Positions 1 through 36,555 of a DNA stretch of 41,667 nt are shown one piece after another. The position numbers and the translations under genes are program-made. The DNA lies in UHGV virus genome UHGV-0205829. One strand, written 5' to 3'. Position 1 is the stretch's first letter; each line of letters opens with the position of its first letter. The notes under the pieces were generated by a model, which was not told the origin of the DNA, ran no database searches, and saw nothing but the letters and a program-made list of their open reading frames with translations. The DNA comes from a virus.

Positions 1-19
1 ATTTTTCATCTCCTTATAG

Positions 20-36
20 TTGGGGTTATGGGAAGT
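20..36 (+). repeat. IR1: 17-bp core TTGGGGTTATGGGAAGT (putative inversion crossover site)
   Basis: Exact 17-mer shared with 886..902 and with the reverse complement of 1752..1768. Confidence 0.7.
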
Positions 37-438
37 GCGGAGGGATACGTGGCCGATGTTATCGACCTGTATAAATTAGGCGCAAATCCAGCCGGATTCA
101 CTGGTTCCTCAGGGGTCGGTTTTGATTCAAACCAAATTCGTATGTCCGTTGGCGAGCGTGGCAATGAATATCTGTATGGCAGTATGGTCTACAACTTTAC
201 CCCTTACAGTGGTATGTCCATACAGGGAACAAAAGCCGGAGCGGCTTATGACGGAGAGCAATTTATCATAAGCGCAGGTGGTGTTACCGGAGGGAGCGTT
301 GCAGTACCAGCGAGTGGCAGCTTTGTGGTCAGAATCCCTTTTAATAATTTTTTTGTGACAGGCGCGCCGACACTAAGATATTATCGCCGGAATGCTGGAA
401 GCACCGACATTGTAATAACCCGGATATGGTTCTCATAA
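28..438 (+). CDS. Alternative tail-fibre C-terminal cassette (silent, plus orientation). Begins inside repeat IR1 and carries the shared motif (V)GVMGS..GYV..DLY..G.N.AGF
   Basis: N-terminal motif shared with three other cassettes. Frame is open upstream to the window edge. Convergent and abutting with 439..852. C-terminal ..RIWFS resembles ..RVWLS and ..QIWLE of its paralogues. Confidence 0.5.
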   Translation: MGSAEGYVADVIDLYKLGANPAGFTGSSGVGFDSNQIRMSVGERGNEYLYGSMVYNFTPYSGMSIQGTKAGAAYDGEQFIISAGGVTGGSVAVPASGSFVVRIPFNNFFVTGAPTLRYYRRNAGSTDIVITRIWFS

Positions 439-852
439 TTATTCCAACCATATTTGATATACCTGCCCCCACATACCGGTGTAGATTACATCTATAGCAT
501 CACTGTAATAAATATCCGATATATTAAATGTTATTGTTTGATTACCATTGCCTAATCCATCCTGATACTTTATCACCCTGTTGGTAGAATGCCTGTAAAT
601 ACTTAACATATGCTGACCTGTTTCGCCTGCTGTCACATTCATGTGAACTTTTAAATATGTATATCCAGTGAGGTTATAAACTTTTGTTGAGTTCATCCTA
701 CTGCCTCCCTGCTGCACATATATTGAGTTCGATTCAAACGTGACTGTGCCGCTATCTCGATAGAATCCAGCAACATTGCTCCCGTATTTATACAGGTGAT
801 TTGCCGATACAACGTAACCGTCATGACTTCCGATAACCCCAATTACAAGCAA
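439..852 (-). CDS. Alternative tail-fibre C-terminal cassette (silent). Has no ATG (TTG at the repeat) and starts MLVIGVIGSHDGYVV
   Basis: Begins at IR2 (one mismatch to the core) and shares an N-terminal ~35-aa block with its paralogues. Lacking its own ATG and RBS fits a cassette that is expressed only after fusion. Confidence 0.5.
   Translation of the reverse strand: MLVIGVIGSHDGYVVSANHLYKYGSNVAGFYRDSGTVTFESNSIYVQQGGSRMNSTKVYNLTGYTYLKVHMNVTAGETGQHMLSIYRHSTNRVIKYQDGLGNGNQTITFNISDIYYSDAIDVIYTGMWGQVYQIWLE
821..842 (-). repeat. IR2: ttggggttatCggaagtcatga (one mismatch in the core), inverted orientation
   Basis: Reverse complement of 821..842 matches the core. Confidence 0.65.
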
Positions 853-872
853 GTATAGGATAGTCTGCGATT

Positions 873-1298
873 ATGTCTTTTATAATTGGGGTTATGGGAA
901 GTCATAGCGGATATGTAGTCACTCCAACTGACCTGTATTTACATGGTAATAATGCTGCTGGTTTTACTGCACAAAATTGTGCATTTGCTGCCGGACAAAT
1001 CAATATATATTCGCAATCATTTCCACACATACAGTGTTCAAGAAATGTTGTTGGATTTTCTGCATTAAATGTAGACGCAAATATATATGAGATAGACGGA
1101 GTACAAAACGGCTGTGGAATTCAAGTTAATATGGCTGGTATTACCTTAAAATCATTATCCGGCTCTCCTGGAAGGCGTGTATTCAGTGTTTCTTTGGCAG
1201 GCGCACAAGTTTCTGGAACATTGACCATATCATTTATTCTCAGATATAAAGCATCGAATGAAGTCGGTGGTGTTGTATATCGTGTATGGTTAAGTTAG
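873..1298 (+). CDS. Alternative tail-fibre C-terminal cassette (plus orientation). Starts MSFIIGVMGSHSGYVV
   Basis: Begins at IR3, the 22-bp perfect inverted copy of the site inside 1290..2039. Convergent with 1290..2039 and overlaps it by 9 nt. Confidence 0.5.
   Translation: MSFIIGVMGSHSGYVVTPTDLYLHGNNAAGFTAQNCAFAAGQINIYSQSFPHIQCSRNVVGFSALNVDANIYEIDGVQNGCGIQVNMAGITLKSLSGSPGRRVFSVSLAGAQVSGTLTISFILRYKASNEVGGVVYRVWLS
886..907 (+). repeat. IR3: 22-bp TTGGGGTTATGGGAAGTCATAG
   Basis: Perfect 22-bp inverted repeat of 1747..1768. Confidence 0.75.
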
Positions 1299-2039
1299 GC
1301 GTATTTGATATATAGCATGGTAAGTTGTGCTTGTTCCACCAAAATCAAATTCAAAACCAATAAACCTTGTGACATCAAACGAGGATATATTAAAAGTAAC
1401 ATTGTACGAAGAATTCCCTCCGTTTACGTTTTGGTAAAGCATGTAATCATATTTTGCACTTCTGCTCGTAGATAAATAGAGATATATTCGGGTGACATTG
1501 TTACCAGAAATAAGGCCCATTGACAATGTTAGCCTACTATATCCTGATAAATTGTAAGACTTGTTTGTAACCAATGTTCCGCATCCAGAAGTGGAGCCCC
1601 CCTCAGGATATAATCCAGATATTCGCAAATAGCCGCTTTCTAGTGTCATGGAGCCTGATTGGCCTCGTCCCATATATGCCCCAAGACCGAAGCCACCCGG
1701 ATTATTACCACGTAAATACAGGTCTTTTGAGTCAACTACCCAACCACTATGACTTCCCATAACCCCAAATATCGGCACATTCTTTTTTATGTTACCTGCG
1801 GTAAGGTTTGGATCCCCCTTCATGATAATGGCTGATGTTACAAACGTGTTCGCCGGAACTAAAACCCGGTCCGATGTTCCAGGCGTAAATGTTCCTCCCG
1901 CCTGTTCATTCATGACTCCGGCTAATGGCTCCCCGTCCTTATCAACGATTACTTTATTCTTTCTTACGTCTGGCGCTGTAGCTGTAATTACATCCAGGTC
2001 TGCGCCTCCGCCCCCTCCAGGTATTAATATCTTTCCCAT
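1290..2039 (-). CDS. Tail fibre protein: constant N-terminal part (~97 aa, Gly-rich GGGGGADLD) fused at IR4 to the currently expressed C-terminal cassette
   Basis: Strong RBS aggaaaggag N5 ATG. N-terminus is paralogous to that of 2070..3173 (MGKI.I..GG..L.DIIT). Internal motif FGVMGSHSGWVV sits at the repeat. Confidence 0.6.
   Translation of the reverse strand: MGKILIPGGGGGADLDVITATAPDVRKNKVIVDKDGEPLAGVMNEQAGGTFTPGTSDRVLVPANTFVTSAIIMKGDPNLTAGNIKKNVPIFGVMGSHSGWVVDSKDLYLRGNNPGGFGLGAYMGRGQSGSMTLESGYLRISGLYPEGGSTSGCGTLVTNKSYNLSGYSRLTLSMGLISGNNVTRIYLYLSTSRSAKYDYMLYQNVNGGNSSYNVTFNISSFDVTRFIGFEFDFGGTSTTYHAIYQIRLT
1747..1768 (-). repeat. IR4: 22-bp TTGGGGTTATGGGAAGTCATAG in inverted orientation, inside the expressed fibre gene at the constant/variable junction
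   Basis: Reverse complement of 1747..1768 is identical to 886..907. Confidence 0.75.
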
Positions 2040-2069
2040 GGCTGCTCCTTTCCTCTATTGCTTATAATT

Positions 2070-3173
2070 TTAAACCATGTAAATTTCATTAATTTTAGTG
2101 CTACAATTACCACTTGCCGCTCCAACGGAGCTTAAACTTACTCCCAATGCTCCACTTACATTTACGTAATCGTCAATCACTATATACGCATCATCAGCAG
2201 TGATTCCGCTAATATCTAATGCGGATGCTCCTGATTTCAGTTTTGTGGCAGTATCTCTATACGTTGCCGCACTATTTGCAGCACCATTTCTTACTGTAAT
2301 AGCAGGTGCATTTCCTGAATTGGATACATATATAGACTGAAACTTACTGATTCCCTTTACTTTATTTCTTGTTCCTACGCCTTGCCATAAGTAACCGCGA
2401 CCACGTCCTGAATAACATTTGCTGTTTTCATAGTATGCCACTGCTCCACAATATATCGAGCCTGTAATAGTAATTCCATTCTCATCAAATACTGTGCTTC
2501 GGGATATATTTGGTACTGGAGGATATCCTGCCGCCGAATAAAAACTGCTAGTGTCATACCCTTGATTACCACATGCCAACCATCCTCCTGTATTCCATGT
2601 GCATTGTTCTCCATTACGATAAAGCCAATGCTTAAGCTCCACTTCCATATGGCTGATTGATTCTATTGATGTGATTTCCCTGTAAAAAGTGTATTTTCCA
2701 TCCACAGTGACAAGATATTTTCCTTTAGCGACTCCAGGGAATAAAAGTACAAGGTCTGTACCAAATGTCAAGGCAAGATTATAGCCAGTCGTAATATTGT
2801 AATTATCGTCACAGCTACATACTGTACATGTTTTCCCCGTTCCTTCGGCATCTGTACATGTGACATTTAATACTCCACTTGAAATATCTGTGCTGAACAT
2901 GCCAAAATAAGGACATTTAAGCATGGTTTCATATATTTTTCCATCTGCGCCCATTGCATTGATTGTATAGTTTCCAACCTCGCTGCAATAAAATATGGCT
3001 TTCCCATCCTTGATAGTTTCGTTCCATGTTTTTCCATTGCATTCAGCCCTTACGCCATCCTCCTCTATTGATATTAAACCGTCTTTATCGGTAACGATTA
3101 TAACCACATTGGATGTTATGATATCTTCCAGGCTCTCGCCTCCTGATATCATACTTATTGATATTTTTCCCAT
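2070..3173 (-). CDS. Tail fibre or receptor-binding protein (second fibre gene)
   Basis: N-terminus paralogous to 1290..2039. Cys/Gly/Tyr-rich beta-type C-terminus. Lies in the tail-tip cluster. Confidence 0.5.
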   Translation of the reverse strand: MGKISISMISGGESLEDIITSNVVIIVTDKDGLISIEEDGVRAECNGKTWNETIKDGKAIFYCSEVGNYTINAMGADGKIYETMLKCPYFGMFSTDISSGVLNVTCTDAEGTGKTCTVCSCDDNYNITTGYNLALTFGTDLVLLFPGVAKGKYLVTVDGKYTFYREITSIESISHMEVELKHWLYRNGEQCTWNTGGWLACGNQGYDTSSFYSAAGYPPVPNISRSTVFDENGITITGSIYCGAVAYYENSKCYSGRGRGYLWQGVGTRNKVKGISKFQSIYVSNSGNAPAITVRNGAANSAATYRDTATKLKSGASALDISGITADDAYIVIDDYVNVSGALGVSLSSVGAASGNCSTKINEIYMV

Positions 3174-32962: not shown

Positions 32963-33625
32963 CTATATCGCCGGGAGAATCAGATCCGGCCTGCGTCCCG
33001 TGACCACACAGTCCCAGAACCGCCTTTCGGCCTCAACCAGATACTTGATGTCCTCCTCAACGTCCTTTCGCTCTATAAAATAATGTTTGGTTGTAATCCG
33101 CAACTCCCCGCCCCATTCGCTTTTGAGCTGGGCTTTAAGGACTGCAAAATCATATTCCGTCACGGCCAGGTAATGCAGCACCTGACAGAAATAATTATCC
33201 GGTATCCGGTCACGCCACTTCTCACGCTGCATGCTTTGCAGGATATTGGTGGTCTTTATTTCCAGGATTCCGCGGCGACCATTCTTATCCACAAGCTCGC
33301 CATCCAGGGAGGCATGCATCCACGGATAGGCCGTATTTGTAAACATGTTATCCTCGTCATAGGTCACTCGGTATTGTGGATAATCCATGGCGAATAAAGC
33401 TCTCAGATACTTTTCCGCCTCGGTACCATACCTGACGTATTCCCGGTCCGATATATCCTCCGGAATAACCAAGCCACGTTTTTCTTCCCAAAGCTGCACA
33501 TTGTCTTTGTAAGGGTTCATCCCCACGCAAGCACTGGCATCAGAGCCCCCGATATGTCCCTTACGTCCTTCCAGCCATTCCTCCCGGCTTTTAAATATGC
33601 GCTTGCTTACTGACATCTTGTTCAC
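32963..33625 (-). CDS. YqaJ-like (lambda-exonuclease-fold) recombination exonuclease
   Basis: GHIGGSDASACVGMNPY N-terminal motif and downstream ...LEIKTT. Confidence 0.75.
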   Translation of the reverse strand: MNKMSVSKRIFKSREEWLEGRKGHIGGSDASACVGMNPYKDNVQLWEEKRGLVIPEDISDREYVRYGTEAEKYLRALFAMDYPQYRVTYDEDNMFTNTAYPWMHASLDGELVDKNGRRGILEIKTTNILQSMQREKWRDRIPDNYFCQVLHYLAVTEYDFAVLKAQLKSEWGGELRITTKHYFIERKDVEEDIKYLVEAERRFWDCVVTGRRPDLILPAI

Positions 33626-35862: not shown

Positions 35863-36555
35863 ATGGATTATCAAAGCCTATATGACAGTATTTTATACGC
35901 ATATACGTTTTTTGGCATTGACTCATTTCCAGTAGACTGCTTCGAATTAGTTCGGAAATGTGGTTTCAGAACTGTGAAATATACGGACTTAAGTGATAAG
36001 AAGAGAATAGCCTGTCGAACCCTTAGCGAAGATGCCTGCCTTTTGGATGGAACATTGTTTTATGAGGCTAAAGCCCATTCGCGACGGATACAATTTACAA
36101 TAGCACATGAATTTGGGCATGTGTTCTTGAAAACAGACAATGAGGACAAAGCTGATGAATTTGCCAGCCATTTTTTAGCACCACGTATTCTTATTCACAA
36201 ATATAAATGTCATGACGCAATCCAGATACATGATACTTTTGGTCTGTCCTATCAGGCATCTAACAGAGCCTTGATGTCCTACAAAGAGTGGTTCCGCAGT
36301 ATCTCCTACGGCGCAACTAGGAAACCCACGGAGCCGGAGTTGCAGCTGGAACATATTTTCTTTCCTGAACCAAACCTTATTCCACTCATGGAAGGTATTG
36401 CCCAACCGGCCAGGGGGTGTTATACTGAAGAGGATGAGGCTGGCTACTCTGAATTGAATGAACGTTCTGATTTTATGAGATTAATAAGCAGATGGCATGG
36501 AGACCGTGGCTTTGGCCTTGCAGAAAACAAATGGCTTTACGGGAACGACTTATGA
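35863..36555 (+). CDS. ImmA/IrrE-family Zn metalloprotease (anti-repressor protease)
   Basis: HEFGH motif (TIAHEFGHVFL). Immediately downstream of the repressor. Confidence 0.8.
   Translation: MDYQSLYDSILYAYTFFGIDSFPVDCFELVRKCGFRTVKYTDLSDKKRIACRTLSEDACLLDGTLFYEAKAHSRRIQFTIAHEFGHVFLKTDNEDKADEFASHFLAPRILIHKYKCHDAIQIHDTFGLSYQASNRALMSYKEWFRSISYGATRKPTEPELQLEHIFFPEPNLIPLMEGIAQPARGCYTEEDEAGYSELNERSDFMRLISRWHGDRGFGLAENKWLYGNDL

Follow-up and report, generated by a model that had tools for sequence, protein, structure and literature searches.

UHGV-0205829, the stretch of DNA analyzed here (41,667 bp in full, hereafter the window), is a complete, circularly permuted temperate phage genome, and its first 2,039 positions hold a compact tail-fibre locus composed of one constant N-terminal fibre part, four C-terminal tip cassettes and four short sites in alternating orientation. 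The comparative analysis of this locus and its relatives leaves us nearly certain that fibre tips are switched here by programmed inversion, i.e., that the locus is a shufflon. We further favor, as the probable although less secure interpretation, a tail-fibre shufflon that would be run in trans by a host Xer-type tyrosine recombinase. The features of the locus, in order along the window, are:

9..36, plus strand: site s1, with the degenerate arm tctccttatag (LF flank), the centre TTGGGG at 20-25 and the conserved arm TTATGGGAAGT at 26-36
37..438, plus strand: cassette 1, an open reading frame (ORF) that is silent in this arrangement
439..825, minus strand: cassette 2, an ORF, silent in this arrangement
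826..853, minus strand: site s2, reading on the plus strand ACTTCCGATAA (826-836), CCCCAA (837-842) and TTACAAGCAAG (843-853)
843..885, no strand: the 43-bp spacer between s2 and s3, which gives the spL and spR flanks and is inverted in L006-type isoforms
875..902, plus strand: site s3, with the degenerate arm gtcttttataa (875-885), TTGGGG (886-891) and TTATGGGAAGT (892-902)
903..1298, plus strand: cassette 3, an ORF silent in this arrangement, convergent with cassette 4, the stop codons of the two overlapping
1290..1751, minus strand: cassette 4, an ORF for the beta-sandwich tip now fused to the constant part in a product of 249 aa
1752..1779, minus strand: site s4, the expressed junction, reading on the plus strand ACTTCCCATAA (1752-1762), CCCCAA (1763-1768) and ATATCGGCACA (1769-1779), i.e., an arm resembling a XerC arm, the central region and a degenerate second arm within the constant coding sequence
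1769..2039, minus strand: the constant N-terminal fibre part (residues 1 to ~90), with a ribosome-binding site (RBS) and an ATG at 2039

The 17-bp core of these sites, TTGGGGTTATGGGAAGT, occurs at 20-36 (+), 826-842 (-), 886-902 (+) and 1752-1768 (-). This count of four compares with 0.16 expected and is reached in 0 of 100 dinucleotide shuffles; the copy at 826-842 carries one mismatch (TTGGGGTTATCGGAAGT), and allowing as many as 3 mismatches revealed no further match in the window. A perfect 22-mer, TTGGGGTTATGGGAAGTCATAG, is common to copies 3 and 4 and lies within an 83-nt arm of 80% complementarity. A prior interpretation of this DNA made from its letters alone (the sequence-only reading) had described the four alternating core copies, the perfect 22-bp inverted repeat of copies 3 and 4, and a single gene, 1290..2039, with the constant N-terminus, an RBS and an ATG. 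All of these were recovered in our analysis, the core copies at the same coordinates and the strong RBS as GGAAAGGAG-N6-ATG, which is present only in 1290-2039. The constant part is the sole promoter-proximal, translatable way into the shufflon.

Each core copy either opens a domain ORF of 135-160 aa or sits inside the 249-aa gene at 1290-2039 (-), the ORFs being 28-438 (+), 439-852 (-), 873-1298 (+) and 1290-2039 (-); the convergent stop codons abut or overlap, and there is no space for a second gene per cassette. The peptide block previously said to be common to the cassettes is present in all four of them, which begin GV(M/I)GS..G(Y/W)V....(D/H)LY..G.N..GF, but the tip ending (R/Q)(I/V)W(L/F)(S/E) ascribed to all is found in three, cassette 4 ending in QIRLT. 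The cassettes are also more divergent than the 60-75% relatedness suggested for them, with pairwise identities of 27-41% at the amino acid level and ~61-67% at the DNA level (gapped alignments). Members of this family are named "tail fiber protein" in the source database (P0051). An AlphaFold model (mean predicted local distance difference test score, pLDDT, of 74.6, with most of the tip above 80) displays an all-beta sandwich at residues ~105-248 that resembles CBM11, CBM29 and CBM4 modules, gingipain adhesin domains and "tail proteins" of uncultured phages; as modeled, this domain fits a glycan-binding receptor tip.

The strongest evidence for switching comes from naturally occurring isoforms. 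Among database proteins retrieved by protein search, one constant N-terminus is joined to five different tips, including those of cassette 1 (P0009), cassette 2 (P0005/P0006), cassette 3 (P0019/P0008) and a fifth tip (P0002-4), and one further protein, P0001, combines the MSFII leader of cassette 3 with cassette 4 as the expected reciprocal product. The same is observed at the DNA level in contigs (L006-L011, L016/17 and L053) whose shufflon-flanking blocks and entire cassette segments match the window at 99.5-100% identity. A site-by-site tabulation reveals that the backbone flanks (constant, spL, spR and LF) stay fixed and that the right halves (c1-c4, for cassettes 1-4) are permuted, as in the following arrangements:

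Window: constant with c4, spR with c3, spL with c2, LF with c1
L006 type: constant with c1, spL with c2, spR with c4, LF with c3; two nested inversions from the window
L007: constant with c2, spL with c1, spR with c4, LF with c3; one inversion beyond L006

Thus, the constant part carries cassette 1 in L006 and L008-L010, cassette 2 in L007, and cassette 3 in L016, L017, L053, L054 and L056, whereas in L006-L011 cassette 4 is detached from it and joined to the spR flank. Two arrangements are observed in a lineage devoid of cassette 4 (L016, L017, L053) and three in a lineage with three sites (flanks constant, spX and LF; right halves c5, c2 and null), and L056 has five sites. The isoform contigs represent independent assemblies from ENA, Logan, NCBI metagenome-assembled genomes (MAGs), JGI and IMG/VR, produced by different assemblers, and since the isoforms recur across them an assembly artefact is very unlikely. 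These proteins and contigs bear out the proposal of the sequence-only reading that a single constant N-terminus acquires different tips when the DNA between + and - copies inverts; the cassettes that it had suggested looking for in relatives, as alternative 3' ends of fibre genes, are found there (constant part with c1, c2 or c3). We also considered L016, L017 and L053 as products of site-specific deletion between direct sites and rejected this possibility: the alignment places the end of the cassette 4 loss away from every site, and this loss is an ordinary deletion.

A separate observation concerns the spR flank (873-902 in the window; 10001-10492 in L006), which places an ATG (MSFII...) and a weak AGGA before whichever cassette follows. 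In L006-type arrangements the spR-joined cassette is co-oriented with the fibre operon, and translation there might yield a free tip domain (P0001, 163 aa).

Comparison of the isoforms maps the exchange to a short interval. At core position 11, site s2 carries C in place of the G of the other three sites, a difference that corresponds to a G/C variant at arm position 7, and this C stays with cassette 2 next to spL, constant, LF or spR, in the window lineage and in the three-site lineage; on the other side, the flanks diverge immediately left of the core. Because the variant tracks cassette 2 and the flanks differ left of the core, the exchange is placed within TTGGGGTTAT, an interval of 10 nt that contains the 6-bp central region. 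Near-identical contigs differ from the window only through inversions ending inside the core, and no chimeric cassette N-termini were found among the isoforms despite the 80% identity of c3 and c4 over 83 nt.

Sister lineages carry the same kind of switch with a recognizable site grammar. Lineage B, represented by Clostridium sp. 1001271st1_H5 (L020) and 16 IMG/VR contigs (L059-L074), has a fibre with 61% identity in the constant part and sites of the form TATTGT-TTATGGGAAG, i.e., with the centre ACAATA; its arm lies ~5 codons upstream of the SIFGV motif and is read as N-I-V-Y-G-K, in a different reading frame from the F-G-V-M-G-S of the window. In lineage C (L142) the two sites are inverted relative to each other and share the centre AGTATA, and L018/L019 have CTCCAA at all three sites, compared with CCCCAA in the window. 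Centres differ between lineages and are identical within every locus examined except L052. An arm that is fixed and a centre that is free to vary between lineages is the behavior expected of a tyrosine-recombinase overlap, and not of a coding motif or of homologous recombination. In one genome (IMG 2855372448) a prophage of lineage A' (L003, centre CCCCAA) resides together with a lineage-B prophage (L073, centre ACAATA); judging by their sequences, these unlike centres would prevent cross-recombination between the two.

Several lineage-A' contigs (L003, L005, L018, L019, L051, L052, L055-L058) additionally contain a null site, in which the full 17-bp core is followed by a short junk tail (GVIGSKIMLSMAA-stop) and no tip cassette; the null site of lineage B is a 35-bp frameshifting unit. 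The constant part is joined to null in about half of the contigs, which gives a truncated fibre (P0011, P0013), and this state looks like a programmed fibre-OFF. The null site is absent from the window lineage, where two direct sites 71 bp apart seem to have undergone a precise deletion that produced the LF-c1 junction. Since lineage B keeps the arm in another frame and the null site keeps the exact 17-bp core, the conserved unit is the DNA and not the peptide. These two observations agree with the selection on the DNA site itself that had been proposed for the window, and the out-of-frame arm of lineage B speaks against a mere coding motif. Beyond these lineages, a family-profile scan of GTDB genomes yielded 31 distant fibres, all of which except L020 are single-tip without an extra cassette and none of which provided a clue to an adjacent recombinase; a scan of GTDB genomes with the constant N-terminus alone gave no match.

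The architecture of the sites points to the type of enzyme involved. Each site spans 28 bp and consists of an 11-bp arm, a 6-bp asymmetric centre and a degenerate second arm; on the opposite strand it reads ACTTCC(C/G)ATAA, then CCCCAA, then TTATAAAAGAC, CTATAAGGAGA, TTACAAGCAAG or ATATCGGCACA, the conserved half of the core, TTATGGGAAGT, being the reverse complement of ACTTCCCATAA. Predicted dif sites (Kono 2011, PMC3025954) include ACTTCCTATAA-TATATA-TTATGTAAACT in S. aureus, a site beginning ACTTCCTAGAA in B. subtilis and, among Clostridia, ACTTCCCATAA-TAAGTA-TTATGT... in Carboxydothermus and Moorella and ACTTCCGATAA-TAGATA-... in Desulforudis; in the table of that study the arm ACTTCCCATAA is counted 11 times, ACTTCCGATAA 4 times and ACTTCCTATAA 29 times (PMC3025954). 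Both arm variants of the window are exact (11/11) XerC arms of predicted Clostridia dif sites and differ only at the variable position 7. The geometry corresponds as well: an 11-bp arm is followed by a 6-bp centre that coincides with the exchange interval, and then by an arm opening with the dyad TTAT. Of the arm's occurrences in 960 kb of retrieved DNA, 114 fall in shufflon sites and 11 outside them, where 5.5 would be expected, and TTAT is found six bases beyond the arm in 0 of these 11 non-shufflon occurrences. A scan of viral sequences for CTTCCCATAA-N6-TTAT gave mostly chance singletons, with L142 as the only new locus among the matches listed. The inner 4 bp of the second arm are TTAT, CTAT, TTAC and ATAT in the window and TTAT, TTAT and GTAT in lineage B, and the outer 7 bp are unrelated to a XerD arm. 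Each site may thus be read as a half-dif, i.e., a XerC-type arm with a 6-bp centre and a degenerate arm.

Searches for a phage-encoded enzyme yielded a single candidate. Pfam and PHROG scans of window ORFs, the unannotated ones included, and precomputed Pfam annotations of near-identical contigs revealed no serine invertase or second recombinase, and no Resolvase domain was present among the ORFs scanned or in these annotations; phmmer with a serine recombinase produced no match near any shufflon, and no recombinase was found next to the shufflon in a different phage backbone (L018) or in lineages B and C. A 373-aa ORF checked as a possible hidden recombinase belongs to the replication module, beside a helicase-loader-like gene. 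The only recombinase in the closed genome is the lysogeny integrase (38144..39349, plus strand), a tyrosine recombinase of 401 aa located ~5 kb from the shufflon around the circle, with an unrelated att site, and probably outside the shufflon system. Thus, the sequence-only reading was right that a dedicated invertase is not found, but in reporting no invertase gene anywhere in the window it had overlooked this integrase; the dif-like half-site character of the core had escaped it as well. The attP core, as defined by comparison of attL and attR in integrated copies, is a 24-bp sequence at 39452-39475, CCACGACGGTTTCAACGTGCACCG, and arm-type repeats GGTAGGCAA cluster only in attP (39355-39642).

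These data can be combined into the following scheme. Four 28-bp sites in + - + - order would bound two invertible segments and the 43-bp spacer, each segment carrying two convergent tip cassettes, and reciprocal exchange between opposed sites would join any of the four beta-sandwich tips in frame to the constant N-terminus, so that the phage population may carry several receptor specificities. Host XerC/XerD homologues would bind the sites and invert the DNA in trans, exchanging strands in the asymmetric CCCCAA centre, and this private centre would block recombination with the chromosomal dif or with shufflons of other prophages. The sites, the cassettes, the natural isoforms, the interval of exchange, the absence of a phage invertase and the identity of the arms to dif XerC arms are directly documented, whereas we infer Xer, as opposed to some other host tyrosine recombinase, as the enzyme, the change of host range by the tips and the order of strand exchange. 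There is precedent for such sites: those of TLCphi and of the gonococcal genetic island (GGI) combine a good XerC arm with a divergent XerD arm (PMC5357621), and XerC/D-mediated inversions and module shuffling occur at Acinetobacter plasmid pdif sites (PMC9947245, PMC13141974). The more general proposition, that a phage receptor-binding protein (RBP) shufflon devoid of its own recombinase hijacks XerC/XerD via in-frame half-dif sites, with private centres as insulation and the null site of sister lineages as a fibre-OFF state, is one to which we assign roughly even chances.

A number of observations weigh against this scheme. Agreement of the second arm with the XerD consensus TTATGTAAACT is limited to TTAT, and three of the four window sites deviate by one base within that motif as well. 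The comparison draws on predicted dif sites of Clostridia other than Enterocloster and of Bacilli, a literature search for an Enterocloster or Lachnospiraceae dif sequence having found none. Canonical Xer acts at dif without a bias for inversion over deletion, and direct-repeat deletions are rare in the isoform data; the housekeeping Xer system also normally needs FtsK or accessory factors for full exchange. The isoforms are drawn from separate assemblies and not from reads of one clone. The low-coverage contig L052 breaks within-locus identity with three centres at its three sites (TTGGAG, TTGGG, which is one base short, and TTGGGG) and has its constant part in the null state; it represents either a mutationally frozen shufflon or a sequencing error. 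L056 spreads the position-11 variant differently, and the linkage of this variant to the cassette holds only within lineages. Finally, the sequences would look no different if a dedicated host invertase recognized a dif-like arm.

The last point defines an alternative in which the shufflon is the same and the enzyme is a dedicated tyrosine invertase, RecV-like or Xer-paralogous with dif-like arm specificity, supplied in trans by the host or a co-resident prophage. Such an enzyme would account for the absence of an invertase from the phage and for the confinement of inversions to the short core, a recombinase binding one arm strongly would fit the degenerate second arm, and RecV of C. difficile acts globally in trans. 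A trans-supplied invertase has also been proposed for a recombinase-less prophage inversion (Mavrich 2018, PMC6109161). We nevertheless consider this alternative unlikely in view of the 11/11 identity of the arm to predicted dif XerC arms, variable position 7 included, and of its retention in different frames by at least three phage lineages, as an essential, slowly evolving host enzyme predicts. The lysogeny integrase (38144-39349) doubling as invertase is, in our estimate, highly improbable: although it is the sole site-specific recombinase in the genome, and its tyrosine chemistry is consistent with the asymmetric 6-bp overlap, its attP core is unlike the shufflon site, GGTAGGCAA is not above chance in its window-wide count and does not occur near 1-2039, and the same site type is present in the L018/L019 backbone and in lineages B and C without a nearby integrase.

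The annealing-mediated route raised in the sequence-only reading, or homologous recombination at the short inverted repeats, would involve no site-specific enzyme and would be driven by host RecA or by the phage RecT (31135-32031) and YqaJ exonuclease (32963-33625). In its favor are the RecT/YqaJ/DUF1351 module, the absence of an invertase and the run of 22 identical bp common to copies 3 and 4, embedded in an 83-nt stretch at 80%. The mapping of the exchange and the pattern of site conservation make this mechanism improbable. Cassette 2 events exchange within at most 10 identical nt, chimeric N-termini are missing although 80% homology extends further on the right side of the core, conservation ends sharply at 17 bp, even at a null site without a tip cassette, and lineage B retains the arm in a different frame; moreover, centres covary while the arm is fixed, a hallmark of site-specific recombination. 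The remaining possibility is that no programmed switching occurs and that the locus reflects decaying paralogues, a coding motif or assembly artefacts. In a large Lachnospiraceae family of fibres the peptide block is indeed conserved while the remaining members are single-tip, and short-read assemblers can mis-join at inverted repeats. Identical junctions across the ENA, Logan, NCBI MAG, JGI and IMG/VR assemblies made by different assemblers, the reciprocal and in-frame nature of every junction, the occurrence of several arrangements per lineage in four lineages and the conservation of the arm out of frame bring this explanation close to refuted.

The genomic context is that of a temperate siphophage-type genome of an Enterocloster phage, the closest proteins being assigned by their source to Enterocloster bolteae. 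Segment 40734..41667 directly joins 1..36 in relatives at 100% identity; the window is therefore a closed circle opened 19 nt ahead of the first site, and no unseen sequence lies left of position 1. A gene in that direction was considered and rejected: the minus-strand ATG at 9 reads M-K-N-M-V-T-stop after circle closure. In the leftward direction the gene order is tape measure, distal tail proteins, a 367-aa protein, fibre and XhlA/holin/lysin, and in the closed genome the shufflon lies between XhlA/holin and the tail genes; further window genes include the integrase, a CI/ImmA module, RecT/YqaJ, replication genes, terminase and portal. Megablast of window positions 1-2100 against GenBank phages gave no match, and thus there is no annotated relative among them.

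Additional features were observed elsewhere in this genome and its relatives. The attP region occupies 39350-39945 of the window, and the insertion adjoins a gene of the tRNA-U5-methyltransferase family (L014). Between an ImmA/IrrE-like peptidase gene (35863-36555) and the integrase lies a gene at 36611-37954 (+) for a 447-aa product with a transmembrane N-terminus, a coiled coil, and DUF4041 (SNIPE) and T5orf172/MUG113 nuclease-like domains, which looks like a lysogeny-module defence or exclusion gene. A 547-aa head-morphogenesis protein (Phage_min_cap2 / SPP1 gp7-like) is encoded at 15557-17200 (-); its counterpart in a near-identical contig has an ADP-ribosyltransferase toxin domain (PF03496) in precomputed Pfam annotation, and this protein may be an injected effector. 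An IS91-family element (Zn_Tnp_IS91 and Y2_Tnp) is inserted in L006, L008, L009 and L011 at the equivalent of window ~40735-40780, between an 81-aa gene and the lysin gene, and a group II intron reverse transcriptase is additionally present there in L011. The IS91 Y2 transposase and the group II intron were dismissed as relevant candidates, being absent from the window and L007, whose arrangements still differ. A mosaic relative with a common replication module (L015) encodes a 341-aa XerC/D-like tyrosine recombinase (17858-18883) upstream of a sigma-70 region-4 protein in its late-regulation region; this gene has no counterpart in the window.

Overall, inversion of tail-fibre genes is a classic phage hedge on host range, and the new element here is a specific mechanism, with dif-type sites, lineage-private centres and no phage invertase, in loci found in abundant human-gut Lachnospiraceae prophages. 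If the host Xer system runs the switch, its role would extend beyond dimer resolution and the mobility of pdif modules and of integrative mobile elements exploiting Xer (IMEX) to programmed coding phase variation in a virus, and invertase-based searches would systematically miss such phase-variable phage loci. In that case, a fixed arm with a private centre, in the form of inverted ACTTCCNATAA-N6 pairs with matching centres, would also constitute a grammar for orthogonal switches added in Firmicutes without an added enzyme, and receptor as well as ON/OFF switching of gut prophage fibres would be testable in existing lysogens and public reads. Even if another host recombinase is responsible, the isoform series provides a base-pair-level crossover map for a new shufflon family.

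To our knowledge, every characterized tail-fibre inversion switch carries its own invertase, and a literature search for Xer or dif-like sites tied to a phage fibre shufflon found no paper. The Mu G / P1 C layout initially invoked for the window holds with respect to a constant N-terminus with C-termini swapped by inversion, but not with respect to U/U' genes, a serine invertase or a gix-like site; the likeness is a loose one, and the locus falls outside the Mu G / P1 C family. Mu G, P1 C and p15B Min likewise exchange the receptor-binding C-terminus by inversion in a fibre gene, and Min is multi-segment; they differ from the window in having an adjacent serine invertase (Gin, Cin, Min), Fis and an enhancer, symmetric 26-bp sites with a 2-bp crossover, and a fibre-assembly gene (U/U') per segment. 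The layout of the window is closer to multi-segment shufflons of the R64 and Rin types. As in R64/IncI plasmids (Rci, sfx), multiple segments invert singly or in groups, and the sfx site, too, has one conserved arm and a spacer with a variable other arm and lies inside the coding sequence at the constant/variable junction, whereas its sequence is unrelated, the target is the pilV adhesin and a dedicated rci gene adjoins it.

Rin of Bifidobacterium prophages integrated at dnaJ2 (PMC6109161) is a further close parallel, being a system of Gram-positive gut temperate siphophages in which a constant RBP N-terminus is combined with dissimilar C-terminal cassettes via an 11-bp asymmetric rix site, tyrosine chemistry was inferred, and the evidence came from comparison of prophage and virion isoforms. 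It differs in having its own XerD-like invertase gene flanking the cassettes and mostly tandem cassettes, vs. convergent pairs here, and no link to dif was made (PMC6109161). The resemblance of rix, TTCCCTAACCC, to TTCCCATAACCCC in the window is a lead only, and the same applies to one recombinase-less prophage inversion at CAGGGTTA for which a trans-acting enzyme was suggested (PMC6109161). A BV01-like Phocaeicola phage (PMC13596623), also gut temperate, has a multi-cassette shufflon at the distal end of a gene for a carbohydrate-binding tail fibre, all configurations of which were detected in read data, but with its own flanking recombinase, a 10-bp motif TGGGAGAACT and a host from another phylum. 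With IMEX (CTXphi, VGJphi, TLCphi, GGI) and Acinetobacter pdif modules the shufflon shares dif-like sites and the lack of a recombinase of its own; at pdif sites in opposed orientation, XerC/D mediates inversions and module shuffling (PMC5357621, PMC9947245, PMC13141974). In those systems Xer serves integration, excision and module movement, and IMEX centres match the host dif, whereas the locus described here has the private centre CCCCAA and a proposed in-frame switching of a structural gene.

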